A DNA stretch of 64,000 nt from a phage: the NCBI GenBank assembly GCA_029220445.1, contig GCA_029220445.1_3666.1. One strand, given 5' to 3'. The notes beneath the pieces were generated by a model. The model did no database searches and was not told the origin of the DNA. It saw nothing but the letters and a program-made list of their open reading frames with translations. The position numbers and the translations under genes are program-made. Positions 8,255 to 56,577 of this stretch are shown piece by piece. Numbering within the stretch: the stretch's first letter is position 1; each line of letters starts with the position of its first letter.

Positions 8255-8309
8255 TTTATCTTGAAGGGGCAAAAGTGCCCACACAACACCCAAGAGAGAG
8301 GAAAACATT

Positions 8310-8582
8310 ATGTCAAGCTGGATTAATCAAGAAGTCGAATCACGTTTTAATGCTATATGGGATCTCATCGAAAAAGAGGACGGAACATCAAGCCCCTACC
8401 TCAACAATTTGGAATTCCATTTTGTGGAAGCGATGAACGCAGAACATGATCACGAAGGTGGCGCGGATGAGTTCGCTAAAGGTTATGGCTTTAACAATGC
8501 CAACGAAATGATCGAGGCGGTAGTACTCCAGGCTGAGGAAGATTATCAATTAAAAACGCTTGAATTCTGCCGCCGTAAGTAA
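8310..8582 (+). CDS. hypothetical early protein (90 aa)
   Basis: ORF with AGAGAGG RBS. Confidence 0.6.
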   Translation: MSSWINQEVESRFNAIWDLIEKEDGTSSPYLNNLEFHFVEAMNAEHDHEGGADEFAKGYGFNNANEMIEAVVLQAEEDYQLKTLEFCRRK

Positions 8583-8642
8583 TAAGATAATGACACGGGC
8601 CAAAAGGCCCACTAATCAGAACCACACAAAGAGAGAAAGAAA

Positions 8643-8861
8643 ATGACAACCCGTAAAATTAAAGTTGTTTGCATTGAATCGACTGGGGGCGCTTTTGTAG
8701 TTGGTCAGGAATATAATGCGGTTTTAATGGGTACGGATTGGAAGGTTAAAGGCCTTAATGGTTACGAGTACGGCACTACTTGCGGCTTGCGTGGTCGAAT
8801 CGGATACGTGAGTTTAGACAATAAAGAAAAATTTGTTTTCGACACCCTTGTGAGTAAATAG
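8643..8861 (+). CDS. hypothetical early protein (72 aa)
   Basis: ORF after leader hairpin gggccaaaaggccc and AGAGAGA RBS. Confidence 0.55.
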   Translation: MTTRKIKVVCIESTGGAFVVGQEYNAVLMGTDWKVKGLNGYEYGTTCGLRGRIGYVSLDNKEKFVFDTLVSK

Positions 8862-8938
8862 CATGAATTGCTAAAGACTGATCTGCGAACTGCTGTATTA
8901 TCAACTAATCAAAACGAACCACATAAAGAGGAAACATC

Positions 8939-9202
8939 ATGAAACGTCTGGATCAGCTTAAATTAGTTCAGTACATGGCCTACAGAATTCTTGAAGTCCA
9001 AAAAGGTAGCAAAAAAGAGGTTTGCGAGAAAGCTTATAAGATCTTTACCCGCAAAAAAGATGACTGGATGCTACGCCAGACCAAAAAGGCTGACATCTTG
9101 GGGTACCTGGAAGAAGAGATCCGCCTTGAAGAGCAAGAAGAGATCCGCCGTAGTGAGGCAGATTATCAGGCAGCTTGGGAAAGCTGGATGAGTAACAAAT
9201 AA
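8939..9202 (+). CDS. hypothetical early protein (87 aa)
   Basis: ORF with AGAGGA RBS; charged, helical-looking. Confidence 0.55.
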   Translation: MKRLDQLKLVQYMAYRILEVQKGSKKEVCEKAYKIFTRKKDDWMLRQTKKADILGYLEEEIRLEEQEEIRRSEADYQAAWESWMSNK

Positions 9203-9269
9203 TACAACAAGTTACATGGTCAGGGGGCAATAAAGCCCCTTGATCGCATAAAAATTATGCCATCCTTGG

Positions 9270-9298
9270 TTGACAAGGATCGGCAGTTTTGCTATATT
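9270..9298 (+). promoter_or_regulatory. sigma70-like promoter (TTGACA-N17-TATATT)
   Basis: Near-consensus hexamers upstream of ORF 9347. Confidence 0.65.
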
Positions 9299-9346
9299 CT
9301 TTTTGAAGGGAAGTTGTAAGAAAATTAACTAAGAGGTAAAAACACC

Positions 9347-9766
9347 ATGAACATTAAATCTAATAATCCGGCATATAGCTTTGATAACGCTTTTTGTCAC
9401 GGTCCGGCGGCGAAAGGATTCGAAATCGATGGTAAACTAATTATTGTCAATGTTGACGGGGAAGAGGTTGCAGTATATCCGGTAGCAGACGTTAAAAGCC
9501 GTTTACAATGCCGCATTGATGTTACCGCCTATCAGCTTGATCCGGTCCGCATAGTTGCCCTGGTCCTGGAGGAAGAAATTAAAGCCATGCATCATAGCAA
9601 CAAGTTTATCGGTGACGCTCAGGATAATATGAAGGTATGCCGCTATAAAGTTAATGAAGTGCTTAAAGAATATGGATTTAAGGATCTGATGATCAAACGT
9701 GATGAAAAATTCCGCTACCGTAACGACCTGGCAAATCGGATTTTTGAAATATACGAATCATTATAA
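9347..9766 (+). CDS. hypothetical early protein (139 aa)
   Basis: ORF with AGAGG RBS; last gene of plus-strand early block. Confidence 0.6.
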   Translation: MNIKSNNPAYSFDNAFCHGPAAKGFEIDGKLIIVNVDGEEVAVYPVADVKSRLQCRIDVTAYQLDPVRIVALVLEEEIKAMHHSNKFIGDAQDNMKVCRYKVNEVLKEYGFKDLMIKRDEKFRYRNDLANRIFEIYESL

Positions 9767-9784
9767 TTTTTTAACTGAATTATC

Positions 9785-9809
9785 AAGGGGCTTAGGCCCC
9801 TTTCTTTTT
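9785..9809 (+). terminator. intrinsic terminator (aggggc-tta-gcccct + T-run)
   Basis: Hairpin plus TTCTTTTTG immediately after ORF 9347-9766. Confidence 0.7.
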
Positions 9810-10399
9810 GTCTGCTCTTCCCCCTACCATAAACGGCCCTACCTGGCAAGTGGAATAATTGACGAGCCATCAATCCCACACACTGTACAAATATACATGT
9901 AAAATAGCTATTGCATAACCTTTCATTGTGTGGTAGCAGGGCTATTTTTACCCGTTTTCCCTTCCAAAATTGCACGTAATGCCGCTATTGCACAAATTTT
10001 AACCTGATGCAGATCTTCAATATCTTGTCAACAAATAAAAATTCTTATAAGTCATACACTTACACCAACACAAAAGCGTTTTCTACGTGAAAAATCGAGT
10101 ATAACTATAGCCGCCAGATCTCAGAATTTACGTACGCTCACCATTCTATAGCCTGCTAAGTATTTATTCCAACCATAGAATAATGGAATAGTCAATACCT
10201 GCATAAAATAATTATTCGTTTAAATTGCATAACATAAATCAGCCAGGGTGTCAACATTTTTCGTAAACAGTCCGAAATTATCGCTGTGAATTATCATAAA
10301 CAGAGAAATCTTTAGTCGTCTAATGTTTACTGTACGTTACTATACTGACTGGAATCATTAGATGACTAAGAGAAAGATAAGAAATAATTAACAATACAA

Positions 10400-11160
10400 T
10401 TATTTTATCTGTAACAATAAGGCAACTATGCAAACGAATGGCATGGCGCGACGGAGTCGCGACATAATATAAAAGCAGTAACCATCACCCCCGTGATAGT
10501 TTGTCTGCAAACTATTAATCAGATCATAGTTGCCTTGTATTTAGTTAATCATGACATAACAAGCAAGGCAACTATAGATCTGCTAATAGTTGCCCTGCTT
10601 TTATATTATGTCACCTATTGTAAACCAGTTAATTGTCAGCTTGTTGGCTGTTAGCTTGTCAATTGTTATCTTGTTAATTGTTTTCATGCAAACGAATGGC
10701 ATGGCTTATCATCTCTGTGTAAACAGTCAATCATGTAAATGATAAGTATGTTAACAGTTATCCATGTAAACTATTAGACATGTAAACTATTGAGAATGTA
10801 AACAGTAAAGGGCGTGAACAGTAAGCGAGGGAATAGTAATAGCGTGAATAGTGACAGCGTAAACAGTCAGGCATGTCAATTAAGTCTAAAGTGTCAAAGG
10901 TGTCATATTATGTCACCAGTATGCCCAGTATGTCAGACAAGTTTTTCTCCTCTTTGTCAAGTGCTGCATGAAAAATTTACAAGCTGGTATGGTAGCATTT
11001 TTGCGGTCCTGTTTACATTCAGTAATGTATGTATAATCCTTGTTGTGTGGGCGCTTAGACGTCTAGACGGTTGGAAGTCCACAGGTCAATATCTAATCTA
11101 TCGGCTGCTAACTATATCCCACACAAATAGTAAGAAATATAATTGTTATGTGTGTAAACA
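10400..11160. repeat. iteron/palindrome array in gene-free region (GGCAACTAT x4 in inverted pairs; 20-bp direct repeat ATGCAAACGAATGGCATGGC x2; ~10 copies of GTAAACAGT/ATGTAAACTATT-type iterons)
   Basis: Direct and inverted repeats read from sequence; no credible ORF; candidate replication origin or regulator-binding array. Confidence 0.6.
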
Positions 11161-11459
11161 GTAACTCATGTTATCAATCCCTGTATGTATCGCCAGTGGT
11201 GCGCATAATGGGTATTATGTTAAATTGCCCGTAATGATAATGGTTCTCACAATGATATGTATTCTCATTCCCCCACACAAAATAGATTGCAAATGTTGTG
11301 CCACTGTGTGAACGGCCTCACCTATTAATTTGCCTCACTGCCTCGATATTTGAGAATTGTTATAAGAATGAGAATGATTCCCATTTCGTCCGCCTGGCAG
11401 CACTCCTGTAGGACAAGCACAAAATCGTGGCATAGCTGGACCTGTTCAGATATTTCTGG

Positions 11460-11700
11460 CTGGCTCTTCAGGTCTGTGTGGGAAAAGCCAACCCCCTCCG
11501 GCGGCGGGGAGGGTGTCAATTAAAAAATTTACGGGGTATATGAAGCGCTCTTCAGGTAAGGCATGTACTATGGGATGAAACCCTCTTCAGGCAATGATAT
11601 TTGTGGGTGTGATATTTGCTGGAAAGCCAGATATGACGGGACTCCCGGCGGGGCAGGGGTAGTACAGACAGGGAAAATATGGGGATGTAGTTGGGTGAAT
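11460..11700. repeat. GC-rich palindromes (ccctccggcggcggggaggg; cccggcggggcagggg) with recurring CTCTTCAGG motif
   Basis: Motif at about 11463, 11547, 11583 and again near 11996; region lacks ORFs. Confidence 0.45.
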
Positions 11701-12355
11701 TGATCGGGCAGGTAGAGTATGGAATATGTTACAAGTATGTTAAATATGGAGGGTGAATATCTGCAGGATTTGTGTGTAAAATCAAAGACTTAAGTAGTGT
11801 TGTGGTATTTTCTATAAATAATTCAAGTTTAATAGGTAATATTTGTCTCTATCCACTTTGTGTGGTAAACAAATTCAAATGAGATTGGTTTACAAGTGTA
11901 TACATAATATACAAATTAAAGATACAAGAAACCCCCCCTCCCCCTTCGGCTACCATTCACCTTTTCCTCTGACTGGTACTTAAACACTTATTCAGACTCT
12001 TCAGGTTATCACCCATATACCATATGGCAGTGACTGGTGTCCTCCGGCCCCTCTTTCGTCACCCGTCCGCTTCGCCATGCTAATGCCATAGCCAAATGTT
12101 CGGTTGTTCACCCTGTTCACTCAGGTGTATCTCCATACCCCTTCAAACCGAAGAGAACAGAAAACCCGAATTACTCGGTAAAAGAAAAGAGAAGAACTTA
12201 ATTTTATCAGGATAGGCAAGAATGTCAAGGCATGACTGCTCACTAAACAAGCAAACAGTCATGTGTGGGAGGTAAGTGATTGTGGTGGTAGGAAATTTAG
12301 TTGAAAGATGTGTTATAGGTGCTTCCAGCACTTTAGCCTGGCAGCTAATTGTGTG

Positions 12356-12571
12356 TCAGTCCAGCGGTTCATCCTCTACTTCACTGAAATCAATGTTCAT
12401 GGTCTCTTCCCAACCATCGATCTCAGCACAAGAGTGGAGTTCTTTAGGGTTTACTCCCAAAGCCTCAGCAACAGAGTCTATATTTAACACCTCTGGCAGG
12501 TATGATTCATCGAATTCAAGGTAAATCAGGCCACGAGTGTTGTCAACTCCACCAAATATTTCTATCTTCAT
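12356..12571 (-). CDS. small acidic protein (72 aa), member of MK[IV][KE]-start acidic family
   Basis: ATG 12571 with AGGAGA RBS (track start 12637 is upstream extension); acidic C-terminus. Confidence 0.45.
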   Translation of the reverse strand: MKIEIFGGVDNTRGLIYLEFDESYLPEVLNIDSVAEALGVNPKELHSCAEIDGWEETMNIDFSEVEDEPLD

Positions 12572-12691
12572 GAAATCTCCTCTGGAAATGAGAGTGTGAA
12601 CAGGGTTTATACGTTCCAATGCACTGGAATTATGCACGTTTGCCTCTTCAGACCATGCTTTAGCATGAGGAACCTGTGTGGGCTCGGTGCT

Positions 12692-13105
12692 TCATAGTCT
12701 ACCACCCCTGAACTCTTCGTGCTCAGGCATAATAGAGAACCAGATATCTACGATGTCTTCCCACGTTAGGTCATCAGCCTCAGGATCTACCTGGAGCGAA
12801 GATGGAGAATCTTCAGAATCGAAGTTTTCCTCTTTCACTGGCTCAGCCAAGGGACATATAGTCACTCCTTTGGATGTCTCTTCAAATGCATGTGTGTTTA
12901 TCATGTTCCACCCGTGAGTATTCCGGCAACAGCCACTATGGACGTAATGATCATCAGGATCACCACCAAAACCTCTGACAATGTTTTCATTGTGTGTCCC
13001 ATATTCTCCAAACGATGTGTGGATACTATCACTGGAGCGGAAATGTGTCAACAGAAACGTCGCGAGGGTTTGGTTAAAATCCGAGCGTATGGTGATTTGG
13101 GTCAA
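12692..13105 (-). CDS. hypothetical protein, start uncertain (up to 137 aa)
   Basis: ORF with acidic C-terminal half; no clear RBS; may start at internal Met (12904). Confidence 0.3.
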   Translation of the reverse strand: MTQITIRSDFNQTLATFLLTHFRSSDSIHTSFGEYGTHNENIVRGFGGDPDDHYVHSGCCRNTHGWNMINTHAFEETSKGVTICPLAEPVKEENFDSEDSPSSLQVDPEADDLTWEDIVDIWFSIMPEHEEFRGGRL

Positions 13106-13264
13106 AACGGACGTGCGTTCTCGCTACGCTCGAAATATAAAGTTGTTTGTAGGAAGCTCTTAAACGCTCTGTAATGAGATTAACTACCCAAGGTATTCAA
13201 TCGTGCACCAGACAAAGAAAAGGACGCCACAGAGCGTCCTAGGTGTCTTAAATTTGATATTTTG

Positions 13265-13564
13265 CTATACCCATGAGGGCTTATCAAGGTTGGAGTAGCT
13301 AAAAGGTGTCAAAAGGTGACTGTCAAAATCTCTCAAACTATCCAGATCTTTTTCCTCGTCCTGGCACCATCTGTGCCTACATTTATTGTTGTAGTGCATA
13401 GAATGCATAGCGTTCTGCAACTTAACAGGTACAAGTGATTCAGGAGTAGATAGTATTGTTGGGTATGCCAGAACCACCTCAAACAGTGGAAACACATCGA
13501 AACTAAAGTCTACCTCTGCAGAGGTTGATGGCATATAGGAGTATTTAGCCGCCTTTGTAGACAT
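13265..13564 (-). CDS. hypothetical protein (99 aa)
   Basis: ATG 13564 with GAGGTGG RBS. Confidence 0.45.
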   Translation of the reverse strand: MSTKAAKYSYMPSTSAEVDFSFDVFPLFEVVLAYPTILSTPESLVPVKLQNAMHSMHYNNKCRHRWCQDEEKDLDSLRDFDSHLLTPFSYSNLDKPSWV

Positions 13565-49385: not shown

Positions 49386-49736
49386 TTAGTAGATGTTTTG
49401 TTTGATCTCTATTCCAAACTTCTTGAATGAGTCAGCAGCAAGCATAAATTTACGAGCTGCCGATGGATTAGAAGTATGCACGAAAATAATCACGTTGTCA
49501 ATAAGTGGTGGCTTTCCGAATACAAGTTTCTCCTCTAGCGCAGAGAAGCAGTCGTACCCTTCAAGAACTTCACCTAGATCATTGTCAAAATACCATTCAG
49601 ATACGCGTCTGTAGAGCTTTCTCTTATCATTAAGAAAATCCATAAATTCAGAAGAATTCTTTAGCCACAGAGCGTCTGGGAGTCCATAATCTGACGGATC
49701 TCTAAAATCATCAAGCCACACAATCCACTTCTTCAT
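49386..49736 (-). CDS. hypothetical protein (116 aa)
   Basis: ATG 49736 with GAGGA RBS; IVWLDDFRDP ... FDNDLGE motifs, no family assigned. Confidence 0.5.
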   Translation of the reverse strand: MKKWIVWLDDFRDPSDYGLPDALWLKNSSEFMDFLNDKRKLYRRVSEWYFDNDLGEVLEGYDCFSALEEKLVFGKPPLIDNVIIFVHTSNPSAARKFMLAADSFKKFGIEIKQNIY

Positions 49737-50668
49737 TGCATATAGTCCTCGTTGTGGAAATAGCAGTCCAGTATCTCGCGACGCTCCTGCTCTAATAAGC
49801 AATTCCACACATCTTCTGTATAGTTGCTACGAATAAATTTTACCATACCGTAAAACTCCTCGTCAACACGTTTAAAAATATCGTCATCCCAAATCTTCCA
49901 TGCTTTACCTCTCATTACGGCCTTCCGTGCCAAATAGTATGGAGACTTGATCTTCAGCTGCAGGTCATAAGGGCAGTAAGGCTTACGGATCATATACCCT
50001 TCGCCCCTTGTTTCTGCAGCTAATTCTTTTGCATAGCTGAACGGGATTTCACGCACAGTGTGAGGACGTTTTGCACCAAGGTATTTGGCAATCCCATCTA
50101 AAGCTGCTTCTGGTAGCATTATTCCAGAATCATTATATCTGCAACCTATCAAATATGCGCCATGGTCTTCTTGAACAATATGCGGATCTGAAGGGTGACA
50201 AATTTCAAACATGAATGTCATGTTTTCATTGCCCATAACCTTCTTGATAAGATCTAAATTACCACATTGCTCTTGGATGGTTTCCTTTGCAAGGTTACAA
50301 TATGGAGAATCAAGAGACCCGGTTGTTGAGAACAATAGTTCACCTTTATGAGATGATACCACACCGAGGAATCCGTTCTTTTTCTCTACCGCAGTAACAA
50401 GTTTACTGTCCGGTAGGTTGGTGGAGTTTTCTCCTAAGTTGAATACTTTTGTGAAAGGCCATGCCACAACATTCCCCTCATTGCCAACAACAATACCTCG
50501 GCACTCCAGTAAACGCGGAGACAAATGCCACAGATTGTTGTAGAATACTTTTCTGGCATATTTATAGATCTTTAATCCAAGATCTGGATAATACCGACTG
50601 GTTACAAGACCTTTGTCTACTAGGTCATCTGCATTAAAATACTTCATCATACGTTCCTCATTTGTCAT
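49733..50668 (-). CDS. polynucleotide ligase of the covalent nucleotidyltransferase family, probable RNA ligase (311 aa)
   Basis: Motif I EKKNGF, motif IV EGYMIRK, motif V LQLKIK; divergent from kinase/phosphatase genes. Confidence 0.5.
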   Translation of the reverse strand: MTNEERMMKYFNADDLVDKGLVTSRYYPDLGLKIYKYARKVFYNNLWHLSPRLLECRGIVVGNEGNVVAWPFTKVFNLGENSTNLPDSKLVTAVEKKNGFLGVVSSHKGELLFSTTGSLDSPYCNLAKETIQEQCGNLDLIKKVMGNENMTFMFEICHPSDPHIVQEDHGAYLIGCRYNDSGIMLPEAALDGIAKYLGAKRPHTVREIPFSYAKELAAETRGEGYMIRKPYCPYDLQLKIKSPYYLARKAVMRGKAWKIWDDDIFKRVDEEFYGMVKFIRSNYTEDVWNCLLEQERREILDCYFHNEDYMQ

Positions 50669-50768
50669 TTTGTCAGTCTATCCTGCCACACAAATAACCT
50701 AGTGTCAACACTTGAAATTAACAAAACAGTTAGGTATACTATCATTAAAATTAAAACGGAGGATTGCT

Positions 50769-51179
50769 ATGTCTAAAATGCTATATATCGTGCGTGGTCT
50801 GCCAGGGTCTGGCAAATCAACACTGGCAAATGCGCTATCTTTAGAAGGTCTGTATCCACATTTTGAGAACGACATGTTCTGGTATGACGATGACGGCAAT
50901 TACAACTGGGATGCAAGTAAAGTAACACTCGCAGCAAAATGGTGCAAAGATAACGTAGAAGATATGATGAGTATGGGATACGACCGTATCGTGGTAAGTA
51001 ATACGTTTACAAAAGAAAAACATGTGCAGGAATATGTTGACATGGCAATCAGTCATGGGTATAGTTATACCGTGATCGTGGTTGAAAACCGCCACGGTAA
51101 TAAAAGCATTCATGATGTTCCAGACAAGGTTGTGGATCGTATGGAACGCCAGCTTAAAAACTGCATTAAACTTAAATGA
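50769..51179 (+). CDS. polynucleotide 5'-kinase-like P-loop kinase (137 aa)
   Basis: Walker A GLPGSGKST and VVSNTFT block resemble T4 Pnk kinase domain; ATG 50769 with GGAGG RBS. Confidence 0.6.
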   Translation: MSKMLYIVRGLPGSGKSTLANALSLEGLYPHFENDMFWYDDDGNYNWDASKVTLAAKWCKDNVEDMMSMGYDRIVVSNTFTKEKHVQEYVDMAISHGYSYTVIVVENRHGNKSIHDVPDKVVDRMERQLKNCIKLK

Positions 51180-51186
51180 GGAATGT

Positions 51187-51741
51187 ATGAAATACTTTGT
51201 AACAAGCGACACACACTTTCTCCACCAGCGGGTCATGGAGTTTGATTCATGTCAAAAACACAGATCTCAGTATGATCACAATCTTGACAGTATGAATGCG
51301 GGAATCATCGCCGAGTGGAACTCTGTTGTGTCACCTGCAGACACTGTGTTCCACTTGGGAGATATTGCGTGCACTAATGATAAGAATATCAACAAATTAC
51401 TTCCAGATATTCTAGATATGTTGAACGGACATATTATTCTTGTTCGTGGCAACCATGACACAAGGACGACTGTCAGAATTATGAAAGAGTTCTATCACGA
51501 GGTTGTAGATTATTACGAGCTTCGCCACAACAAGAATTTGATCTGTATGAGCCATTACCAATTTGCAAAGTGGAACAGAAAGCCTCACGGATCAGTCCAA
51601 CTGTTCGGTCATGCTCACGGAACCACACAACAGTTGTTTGGCAGGCAGCTTGATGTCGGTTGGGATGTGTGGGGGAGACTCTTACCATTAGAAGAGGCAT
51701 ACCGTACTGCAATGAGTTTTGATATTGACAGCAGGGAGTAA
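51187..51741 (+). CDS. calcineurin-like metallophosphoesterase (185 aa)
   Basis: SDTHF, GD, GNHD, GHAHG motifs; ATG 51187 with GAGGA RBS. Confidence 0.65.
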   Translation: MKYFVTSDTHFLHQRVMEFDSCQKHRSQYDHNLDSMNAGIIAEWNSVVSPADTVFHLGDIACTNDKNINKLLPDILDMLNGHIILVRGNHDTRTTVRIMKEFYHEVVDYYELRHNKNLICMSHYQFAKWNRKPHGSVQLFGHAHGTTQQLFGRQLDVGWDVWGRLLPLEEAYRTAMSFDIDSRE

Positions 51742-51788
51742 TCCCTGCTATTTTAAAGAAAATTGCCACACAAGGAGAATCAGGAGAT

Positions 51789-52139
51789 ATGAAAGATGGG
51801 GATAAGCTGCTATATCTTAAAGTCCCCCTTGAAATACTGTCTATGTCAAAAGTTTTGAATGACACAACTGGGGAGGTTGTTGTTCTTGACTTGTATGACA
51901 AGATCGTATACTGCTACCTGCACAACTGGTATAAACTTGGAGGAAATTCACGCTTCACACCCAGCACAAGGAAAATTGCAGCAGATGTTGGGATAAAGAA
52001 AACAAAAGCAGCAGCGTGCGTTAAAACTTTAGAATGTGCAGGATTGGTTGAAACATCCACACAGGGGAGAGGTAAAAGATGCACATTTTCCAAAGTTTTG
52101 CCACCAGAAAAAGTTATTCGAATGTCAACAACTGGTTAG
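51789..52139 (+). CDS. helix-turn-helix DNA-binding protein (116 aa)
   Basis: STRKIAADVGIKKTKAAACVKTLECAGLVE HTH/winged-helix-like segment; upstream of palindromic operator array. Confidence 0.55.
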   Translation: MKDGDKLLYLKVPLEILSMSKVLNDTTGEVVVLDLYDKIVYCYLHNWYKLGGNSRFTPSTRKIAADVGIKKTKAAACVKTLECAGLVETSTQGRGKRCTFSKVLPPEKVIRMSTTG

Positions 52140-52213
52140 ACCAGTAAAAACTTAAATATCTGTACTATAAGGATTCGTATGTTTTATGTTCGCTCTGGAA
52201 CAGAGGTTAGTAA

Positions 52214-52297
52214 CTGTCCGTGATACGGACACTACTGTCCGTCACGCGGACACATCTGCCCGTAATACGGACACTAACTGTCCGTGATACGGACACA
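52214..52297. promoter_or_regulatory. array of four palindromic operator-like sites (GTCCGTnAnACGGAC) at ~21-22 bp spacing
   Basis: Four tandem copies read from sequence, each an inverted repeat; followed by AT-rich inverted repeats to ~52440. Confidence 0.65.
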
Positions 52298-52439
52298 TAA
52301 AGAATATAACTAAAATAACTAAATAATAAAAAATAAAAGATCTAGTACTTATGGTACTAAAGTACATATACTTAACTTATGTAGAATATACTAGATCCTA
52401 AGTACCATGTTTTAAATTTATTACTTACTGTAGGTAGTG

Positions 52440-52740
52440 TCGGCCCTTCATTGGCACTCGCCTACGAGGGGCGAGATGCCGGGCCTCCGTAGTGCACACA
52501 TGCAGGTCTGTTAACATGTGTGGGAGCGAAGCGATAGCGCAGGCCAAAGGCCGAGCACTAATGTGGACCACCGACGAAAGCTTGCCAGCGCCGTAAGGAG
52601 TCGGTTGAGAGCCTCCCGCGCGAGTTTGGATAAAGTTTATGTGTGGAAACGGACAATGAGGCCCCTAAATCGCTCCACAGCCATATAAACTATACCAAGT
52701 AAGGCAATCGCACCAGTTTGATAGAAAAGCTCGTTACAAA
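52440..52740 (+). ncRNA. GC-rich, ORF-free island with multiple hairpins; candidate structured RNA or structured 5' leader of ORF 52783
   Basis: Local GC well above neighbouring sequence; stems cacacatg/catgtgtg, ctcgcc/ggcgag, ggcc-aaa-ggcc; no ORF of 60 aa or more on plus strand. Confidence 0.3.
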
Positions 52741-52782
52741 GCGATACAGTGAGTTTTTCTATAACTTGAAGAGGAGGCAGCT

Positions 52783-53361
52783 ATGAGTCCACGCAAAGAT
52801 GACCGTGAAAAGATTGCAAAACGTTATCAGAATGAAGAACAGATGGAGAAAACTTTCAAGTGGAAGCCAGGTTTCCAGCGTAATCATTCTAACGCTCGTG
52901 ATCGTAAGCATCCGGATAAGTGGTTAACACCGCCAAATGATGGCATGCAGGTTGGTGATGAGAAGGAGCTGTCACCTGGAAAAGATGGCAACTACATTCG
53001 CACTAAGGAAGCAGGTCCAAAGGATGACAGCTATCTTGTAGATAAGGTTCTTGATGGTATTGATGTAGATGTTGACACTGCACGAAACCTTTTTCTTGGT
53101 TGGTATCGTACAGGGTTTTTCGACATCAAGGCGATTCGTCGTGTTTGTGATATTAAAAAGTCTGCCTATGATGATGACTCTCTACATCGCACTCTGAGAC
53201 AATACTCAGAGAGATACGGTCATCCAGTTATCACTCTTGACGATATTAACGAAGTGATGTATCATGCAGAGGTTGTTGCAGGTAGATTCGGTGATGCATA
53301 TCTCGGTATTCTTTCTGCAAAAGATGAGGTGATGTTAAATAAAATTTACTATGAACGCTGA
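52783..53361 (+). CDS. hypothetical protein (192 aa)
   Basis: ORF with GAGGAGG RBS. Confidence 0.55.
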   Translation: MSPRKDDREKIAKRYQNEEQMEKTFKWKPGFQRNHSNARDRKHPDKWLTPPNDGMQVGDEKELSPGKDGNYIRTKEAGPKDDSYLVDKVLDGIDVDVDTARNLFLGWYRTGFFDIKAIRRVCDIKKSAYDDDSLHRTLRQYSERYGHPVITLDDINEVMYHAEVVAGRFGDAYLGILSAKDEVMLNKIYYER

Positions 53362-56293: not shown

Positions 56294-56577
56294 GAGTTGC
56301 TGCACTGTTTATTGTGTGCTTGTTATTGTGTGGGTGTGCAACCAGCGTTGAGAGAGAATACAAGATTGACCCTCCAGATGTAGGAAGGTTGATTGTTAAA
56401 CCCCCGGAAGGTGCCATGAAACCACCTGCTAAAGCTATACCTTTAAAGAAAGGTGCGCCAGATGCGGTGAATTCTGGCATTATGAGGGATAATAATCTGT
56501 CTTGTAGCAATGATAGAGCTAAATTGATCATTTTGCAAGACTATATTAGAACACTGTTTCCAAAGGAGAGAGGTTAA
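56290..56577 (+). CDS. outer-membrane lipoprotein spanin component, Rz1-like (95 aa)
   Basis: Signal peptide with lipobox LLCGC; proline-rich mature region. Confidence 0.6.
   Translation: MRVAALFIVCLLLCGCATSVEREYKIDPPDVGRLIVKPPEGAMKPPAKAIPLKKGAPDAVNSGIMRDNNLSCSNDRAKLIILQDYIRTLFPKERG

Follow-up and report, generated by a model that had tools for sequence, protein, structure and literature searches.

The closest described counterparts of the locus reported here are replication origins built on repeated initiator-binding sites (iterons). In lambdoid phages the initiator and its iterons are exchanged together, and the lambda initiator O is a protein of about 300 amino acids (aa) whose C-terminal domain recruits P-DnaB. 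Single-strand initiation signals, G4-type G-sites and phiX-type primosome assembly sites, are found next to plasmid origins such as R1. At the lambda origin (ori-lambda), dimers of O bind four imperfect inverted-repeat sites and the adjoining AT-rich tract is unwound (PMC7466680). Here we describe a module of comparable layout in a 64-kb stretch of phage DNA (contig GCA_029220445.1_3666.1, the window), in which the gene ORF79 is followed by four palindromic iterons, an AT-rich tract and a GC-rich hairpin element (Table 1). On balance, this module is probably the replication origin of rV5-like phages.

Over 1.1 kb around the iterons, the window shares 99.4% identity with Escherichia phage rV5 (DQ832317) and 99.7% with MG065655, a record named 'Campylobacter phage C2'; matches of 90-99% to the locus were present in 119 Vequintavirus records. 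Judged by its sequence, the window is that of a Vequintavirus, an rV5-like phage of E. coli. The authors of the rV5 genome paper sought an origin by AT and GC skew and found only switches coinciding with changes in the direction of transcription; they reported a T7 gp4-like primase-helicase, and the repeats go unmentioned (PMC3606486). Our literature searches on Vequintavirus iterons, transcription start sites and satellites returned nothing relevant.

Table 1. Features of the proposed origin module and its surroundings in the window, with nucleotide diversity (pi)
Feature	Position	Strand	Sequence or description	pi
Sigma-70-like promoter	51725-51754	+	TTGACA-18-TATTTT with TG; 'P76' in the rV5 record; upstream of ORF79	
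Exchangeable cassette	51752-52438		Promoter, ORF79, spacer, iterons and AT-rich tract; 687 bp	
ORF79 gene	51789-52139	+	116-aa winged-helix protein, proposed origin-binding protein	
Spacer, stop codon to first repeat	52140-52210		Local near-neutral baseline	0.113
Iterons				0.024
Iteron 1	52215-52231		TGTCCGTGATACGGACA; perfect palindrome	
Iteron 2	52236-52252		TGTCCGTCACGCGGACA; 1 mismatch	
Iteron 3	52257-52273		TGCCCGTAATACGGACA; 1 mismatch	
Iteron 4	52279-52295		TGTCCGTGATACGGACA; perfect; adjoins AT-rich tract	
AT-rich tract	52298-52432		80% A+T, A-rich on + strand; proposed DNA-unwinding element	0.029
Hairpin 1 of GC-rich element	52440-52485	+	TCGGCCC...GGGCC	
Core of GC-rich element	52517-52622	+	TGTGTGGGAG...CTCCCGCGCG; non-coding, common to 13-kb E. 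coli plasmids	
Six neighbouring coding regions				0.050-0.066
Divergent intergenic region	50.7 kb			0.118

The iterons, the AT-rich tract and ORF79

The initial annotation of the window had noted four palindromes at a spacing of about 21-22 bp, and this was borne out. The four copies, at 52215-52295, share the 17-bp consensus TGTCCGT-N3-ACGGACA (a 7-N3-7 palindrome) and are embedded in 22-nt direct-repeat units whose starts lie 21, 21 and 22 bp apart, about two helical turns; the first iteron lies 75 bp past the ORF79 gene. With up to two mismatches allowed, the 64-kb window contained only these 4 matches, where shuffled sequences would be expected to give 0.05 +/- 0.22. Iteron origins carry three or more tandem phased repeats, and four are present here. 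The same search of MG065655 (140 kb) found a single isolated site outside the array, and its half-sites (9 and 8, with about 7.7 expected) were at chance frequency, which argues that ORF79 does not have a dispersed regulon of such sites. Scanning viral contigs for the palindrome gave about 100 single chance matches and no informative locus. In phage V18, a clean 21-bp deletion, equivalent to 52244-52264 of the window (the iteron 2/3 junction), has removed one repeat period and left three iterons, showing that the repeat number is not strictly fixed.

The very AT-rich stretch described after the palindromes proved to be the most AT-rich in the window: it holds the lowest-GC stretches of 60, 100 and 135 bp within the 64 kb, and its first 48 bp (52298-52345) reach 88% A+T. 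Its base composition is that of the AT-rich DNA-unwinding element that adjoins the repeats in iteron origins, and it is predicted to unwind. The inverted repeats that had been described within it are present (arms at 52327-52351 and 52399-52423, 72% complementary). However, structural support for them failed, as the single-stranded DNA (ssDNA) fold was no better than that of shuffled sequence (z = -0.18), and their significance therefore rests on sequence conservation and not on structure. The second half of the tract (52338-52410) contains conserved GTAC-containing repeats and two GATC sites. These Dam sites (52339-52342 and 52394-52397) are 55 bp apart and flank the GTAC-containing repeats; control by methylation through them is possible, with counts too small to test.

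Nucleotide diversity, calculated from an alignment of nine Vequintaviruses, showed that the repeats and the AT-rich tract are about twice as conserved as the flanking genes and are under purifying selection (Table 1). The low diversity of both means that this non-coding block is more constrained than the surrounding proteins.

The strongest new evidence came from a divergent rV5-like metagenome phage, IMGVR_UViG_3300010279_000001 (137,418 bp). Its alignment to the window runs at 84% identity up to 51751 and resumes, at 83% identity, at 52439, exactly at the GC-rich element. Between these points, the 687-bp cassette of the window and its 853-bp equivalent have no nucleotide similarity. The equivalent encodes a 143-aa protein with 27% identity to ORF79 (weak HTH_36/DUF6945 matches; pairwise E 2e-6). 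Downstream of this gene lie five or more palindromes, different ones of the ATCTGATRCAAATATGTATCAGA type, and an A-rich AT tract that also differs. The protein and the repeats thus change together, as predicted for a cognate pair of protein and site, and the sequence comparison indicates that the gene, the repeats and the AT-rich tract are inherited and exchanged as one functional unit. An iteron origin has a cognate initiator encoded in cis and repeats specific to it; co-variation of this kind points to such specificity, and ORF79 would be the protein that physically binds the repeats.

The gene for a helix-turn-helix (HTH) protein that had been annotated before the repeats is real, because substitutions in ORF79 pile up at the third codon position (10/10/41 for the three positions), and its product is predicted to be a winged helix. 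It is labelled 'putative transcriptional regulator' in the rV5 record and 'replication initiation protein' in RefSeq. By narrow margins, ORF79 exceeded the Pfam cut-offs for HTH_36 (PF13730; 26.4 bits, cut-off 25) and DUF6945 (PF22182; 30.4 bits, cut-off 28). PHROG 12838 is founded on ORF79, which also gave weak matches to the N-terminal regions of three initiator PHROGs (8102, 428 and 270); the HTH_36/DUF6945 domain is common among phage and plasmid replication initiators. A word-indexed search and a full HMMER search of 1.84 billion representatives gave only 11 matches at E <= 1e-3, and the family is nearly confined to Vequintavirus, with too few homologues for a broad survey of gene neighbourhoods. 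Most of the 11 carry HTH_36 and/or DUF6945 domains. Some, 180-360 aa long, match initiator families (O-like, DnaD-like, RepL and RP-C), and others are fusions of the domain with a GIY-YIG or T5orf172 nuclease domain; two, one rich in repeats and one with an immunoglobulin domain, appear to be spurious. AlphaFold modelled ORF79 as a winged helix when given an alignment of 12 sequences (pLDDT 72.5, pTM 0.69), a single-sequence model being unusable (pLDDT 45). The modelled fold makes ORF79 a candidate DNA-binding dimer, and its sequence family leans towards initiators; neither is decisive. We consider it very likely that ORF79 binds the palindromes.

ORF79 has its own sigma-70-like promoter, P76. 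A scan of 51755-53144 for promoters of the sigma-70 type found no further one, and no intrinsic terminator was detected between P76 and 53145. Transcription from P76 should therefore read through the repeats. There were no copies of the palindrome at the ORF79 promoter itself.

The gene order at the locus is the phosphoesterase gene (ORF80), P76, ORF79, a 640-bp gap and ORF77, with the early genes 81-79 upstream of the repeats and ORF77, tRNAs, lysis genes and terminase genes downstream of them. ORF77 was considered as a detached C-terminal initiator domain and ruled out (hhalign probability 0.5%, no PDB relative). When synteny was followed into the sister genera via the phosphoesterase gene, the gene order was different, and ORF79, ORF77 and the GC-rich element were all absent. 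In Salmonella phage SSE-121 of the sister genus Seunavirus, a divergent intergenic region (2654-2860) has two palindromes of the ATTCCC-N4-GGGAAT type at a distance of 24 bp and, after them, an AT-rich stretch that contains four GATC sites; a 186-aa protein with a weak HTH_36 match is encoded a few hundred bp away. This may be an analogous yet unrelated origin module, and is a loose analogue only. As for the host named in the MG065655 record, 18 GenBank records titled 'Campylobacter phage' are near-identical to E. coli Vequintaviruses, with at least the C2 record flagged UNVERIFIED, and their host labels are probably wrong.

A GC-rich hairpin element shared with E. coli plasmids

Beyond the AT-rich tract, from 52440, the sequence changes to a block of 55-60% G+C in a genome of about 43% G+C (43.6 mol% is reported for rV5). 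Its core has a 6-bp stem, ACCGAC/GTCGGT, around GAAAGCTTGCCAGCGCCG(T/G)AAGGA, and these 26 nt inside the stem are invariant save for the one T/G position. Such near-invariance in the loop suggests, from sequence, a recognition site. Between the phage and plasmid copies described below, the stem changes to GCTGCC/GGCAGC through three compensatory pairs with no disruption, and in hairpin 1 two base pairs were seen by eye to differ by compensatory changes. A long-range closing helix is GGGAAG/CUUCC instead of GGGAG/CUCCC in the divergent metagenome phage. In the tested structure 99% of cells pair, compared with 32-47% when the partners are slid; all these changes go back to no more than two or three splits between lineages, a small sample. 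Measured against shuffled sequences, thermodynamic support for the fold is moderate when the element is taken as DNA (z -2.4) and weak when it is taken as RNA (z -0.95). An Rfam 15 search of the window and of the plasmid copy gave no credible match at E up to 10. The 'ORF78' annotated here in rV5 (52518-52688) was ruled out as a gene, since its substitutions are spread over the codon positions (9/12/8), whereas real genes have a third-position excess, as in ORF79 and also in ORF77 (18/11/56) and ORF80 (20/9/53).

Two other observations concern the make-up of the element. Most Vequintaviruses carry an extra 18 bp (ACAATAACAGGAGTGCAT) at 52497/52498, which would give an additional small GCAC/GTGC hairpin; the insert is absent in rV5, Murica and this window. 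The heptamer TGTGTGG/CCACACA, which opens the GC-rich core, occurs 30 times in the window (9.1 expected), clustered at 8279-13022 and 49716-52646, and 17 times in the 13.7-kb plasmid NZ_CP020521 (1.7 expected). In the plasmids, the tandem hairpin modules that precede the core all begin with it as well. The heptamer may be bound by some factor or be a promoter element.

By sensitive blastn, two sub-blocks of the GC-rich element were found to have counterparts with about 85% identity in five small circular plasmids of E. coli, 13.2-13.7 kb in length (NZ_CP020521, NZ_CP043822, NZ_CP178698, NZ_CP035869 and CP148565). An exact 25-mer scan of metagenomes added two further such contigs, and a scan of genome contigs for the 25-mer of the core gave no match; one 18-mer match in viral contigs was rejected as chance, being inside a GC-rich gene. 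A 39.6-kb record with three copies of the element, about three times the plasmid length, may be a trimer of the plasmid. No paper on this plasmid family was found in a literature search.

All the plasmids have, upstream of the element, an array of about seven palindromic iterons of 19 nt with 23-bp spacing, and in NZ_CP020521 an AT-rich repeat block separates the two. On the 3' side of the element are a conserved promoter, two small ORFs (open reading frames) and a Rep-like protein of 288-306 aa, with an HTH_36 match of 28.5 bits in one member and weak matches to O-like initiator PHROGs. The ORF79 profile aligns to the winged helix at the N-terminus of the Rep-like proteins (hhalign E 8e-5, probability 61%). 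The iterons have at least five specificities across the plasmids, and the HTH proteins are only 25-29% identical to each other, whereas the 100-nt core is invariant. The plasmids have 15 annotated genes with no second Rep-like gene, and their iterons are in the only long non-coding region. As they are extrachromosomal and lack another Rep-like gene, the iteron region is their most plausible origin, and the phage block has the same parts in the same order and orientation (iterons, then GC-rich element).

NZ_CP020521 also encodes major capsid, tape-measure (25% identical to that of rV5-like phages), baseplate and HTH_36 Rep-like proteins, and the baseplate protein and one further protein are 45-50% identical to rV5-like proteins. 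Its annotation contains no portal or terminase gene. The plasmids look like plasmid-borne satellites of Vequintaviruses. The same plasmid carries, within its Rep-like gene region (10882-10938), a 57-nt element consisting of three small hairpins, of which one has a CTTCGG loop. This element, possibly a mobile one, also occurs twice in phage C2 (MG065655), at 11128-11178 and 13261-13317 in opposite orientations, and is absent from the window.

A tentative explanation, which we hold to be possible and rather doubtful, is that the GC-rich element (52440-52622) is a new cis-acting RNA or ssDNA element that Vequintaviruses share with these satellites. The satellites would keep their own initiator and iterons for maintenance and, through the element, tap the replication-priming or packaging machinery of the helper phage. 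If so, the rV5 origin would be bipartite, with an exchangeable specificity cassette and a constant element facing the machinery.

Origin, control array or packaging site

As a replication origin, the module could work as follows. ORF79 would be made from its own early promoter, and its dimers would bind the four 17-bp palindromes on one face of the DNA. The nucleoprotein complex, aided by read-through transcription from the ORF79 promoter, would open the 135-bp AT-rich tract, after which the phage T7 gp4-like primase-helicase could load and start replication. The GC-rich hairpin element, which is retained when initiator and repeats are swapped, would be a common cis-acting part of the origin, such as a structured site for priming or loading. 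The initial annotation had proposed an origin from the layout of iterons and AT-rich unwinding element with an HTH protein upstream, and this gains support from the initiator-type family of ORF79, the cassette exchange and the plasmid parallel.

Several observations weigh against an origin at this position. ORF79 is a single-domain protein and lacks the second domain of known initiators, its fold is also found in repressors, and the sequence of the AT-rich tract is conserved beyond the needs of unwinding. There is also a second candidate for an origin or a pac site in the window, a large, repeat-rich and AT-rich non-coding region at 9790-12000 where two transcription units converge; the 'non-coding' box in the rV5 paper is probably this region. 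A 29-nt repeat built on TGTAAACAGT-like motifs, mostly 16 bp apart, occurs six times there, together with five ATAGTTGCC/GGCAACTAT half-palindromes, the 20-mer ATGCAAACGAATGGCATGGC in two exact copies and a perfect inverted repeat of 18 bp. Sites for host factors (DnaA, IHF) are common but not universal in iteron origins, and searches for DnaA boxes and IHF sites gave 1-mismatch matches only, both outside the iteron and AT-rich blocks. GC skew, which had been suggested as a check, gave weak support for an origin here: in a related 140-kb genome the global minimum of the cumulative skew is nearby, at about 50.7 kb of the window and 1.5 kb from the repeats, but two transcription units diverge at the same point, so that it is weak as independent evidence.

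The initial annotation had equally allowed for a multi-operator switch. ORF79 would then be a repressor or roadblock, the four tandem operators would block or time read-through from the early promoters into the downstream genes, and the AT-rich tract would hold phage-specific promoters. The winged helix of ORF79 is shared with regulators of the MarR, ArsR and LexA types, palindromic sites suit dimeric repressors, and read-through is expected with no terminator between ORF79 and ORF77. Conservation of the AT-rich tract is as promoters would show, and the cassette exchange fits too, as cassettes of regulator and operator also swap between phages. However, the sites are downstream of the regulator gene, and the overlap with a promoter that is expected of operators in a repressor array was not seen in a partial test that covered sigma-70-like promoters and not phage-specific ones. 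The ORF79 promoter carries no site either, the nearest sequence families are initiators and not repressors, and a roadblock does not require the extreme AT content beside the array. In the plasmids, the arrays of about seven iterons occupy the only long non-coding region, beside the only Rep-like gene. The switch is thus weakened by the lack of promoter overlap and of a palindrome at the ORF79 promoter, and we regard transcriptional control as unlikely, yet still a live alternative. Conservation, cassette exchange and the recurrence of the GC-rich element in plasmids favour an origin over a plain operator array, as far as sequence comparison can tell, and the preference is mainly due to the plasmid iteron region that parallels the phage block.

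Another reading, which we consider quite improbable, is packaging, with the repeats and/or the GC-rich element as the pac site, ORF79 as a small TerS-like DNA-recognition protein, and the 13-kb plasmids sharing the element in order to be packaged by the terminase. Vequintaviruses are reported to be circularly permuted and to package by the headful mechanism from a pac site that is unmapped, and no small terminase subunit is annotated near the large one. The GC-rich element is one of very few non-coding stretches common to the phage and to plasmids that encode relatives of the rV5-like capsid, tape-measure and baseplate proteins, as would be expected of a satellite that borrows the packaging site of its helper. 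Nu1 of lambda is also a winged-helix protein that binds repeated sites. A pac site would be expected beside the terminase genes with a TerS-family protein, but the large terminase gene starts at 56577, 4.3 kb from the repeats, and ORF79 matches no terminase family while it does match initiator-linked families. Packaging also leaves unexplained the plasmid-specific iterons and Rep-like proteins, which look like specificity determinants of a replicon, and an AT-rich unwinding tract is unusual in pac sites.

Phages of the rV5 type are isolated widely and serve as agents against pathogenic E. coli, O157 among them, and their origin has so far been undefined. If the module is the origin, its 0.9 kb could provide a handle for replication studies and for engineering, such as origin-dependent amplification and phagemids, and differences between cassettes could help explain incompatibility or exclusion between related phages. 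The GC-rich element, possibly a new kind of origin-associated structured element, points through its presence in plasmids with capsid and tail genes to an unrecognised helper-satellite relationship.

Comparison with known origins

With ori-lambda, the locus shares four putative initiator sites beside an AT-rich tract and, as predicted from P76, read-through transcription. However, ori-lambda is inside the O gene, whereas the rV5-like repeats follow the ORF79 stop codon; its repeats are 19 bp long and not 17 bp, and ORF79 has 116 aa in one domain. As Phage_rep_O (PF04492) of Pfam did not match ORF79, which has one domain and sites outside its gene, ORF79 is not a member of the lambda O family.

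The origins of plasmids with winged-helix Rep proteins (RepA_N of pSK41/pTZ2162; pPS10/R6K-type) likewise have phased tandem Rep sites, an AT-rich region and rep in cis. The ORF79 model resembles the N-terminal domains of RepA_N proteins (Foldseek E 1.4e-3 to 7e-3, TM 0.5-0.58), with a non-significant sequence match (E 0.3). In contrast to these systems, ORF79 is without a second Rep domain, the phage sites are true palindromes and not asymmetric iterons, and the DNA to be replicated belongs to a lytic phage of 137 kb that has a replisome of its own.

The 13-kb E. coli plasmids resemble the locus in having palindromic iterons followed by a homologous GC-rich element and an HTH_36 gene in cis, with iterons that co-vary with the protein. 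They differ in the number and 23-bp spacing of their iterons (about seven), and in a Rep-like protein of 288-306 aa encoded downstream of the element; theirs is itself a putative origin. The GC-rich element recalls the single-strand initiation signals, being a conserved hairpin element a few hundred bp from the iterons and AT-rich tract, with compensatory changes and a fold as DNA at z -2.4, but the G-U/G-T pairs in its closing helix suit RNA at least as well as DNA. Sequence similarity to a known signal of this type was not found, no search aimed at it having been made.

By analogy with ori-lambda and plasmid iteron origins, whose layout it shares, an iteron origin at this locus would be of a known kind. 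What would be new among iteron origins, judging from the sequences compared here, is the stand-alone 116-aa winged-helix protein, the true palindromes and a constant GC-rich element that outlives the exchange of the cassette.

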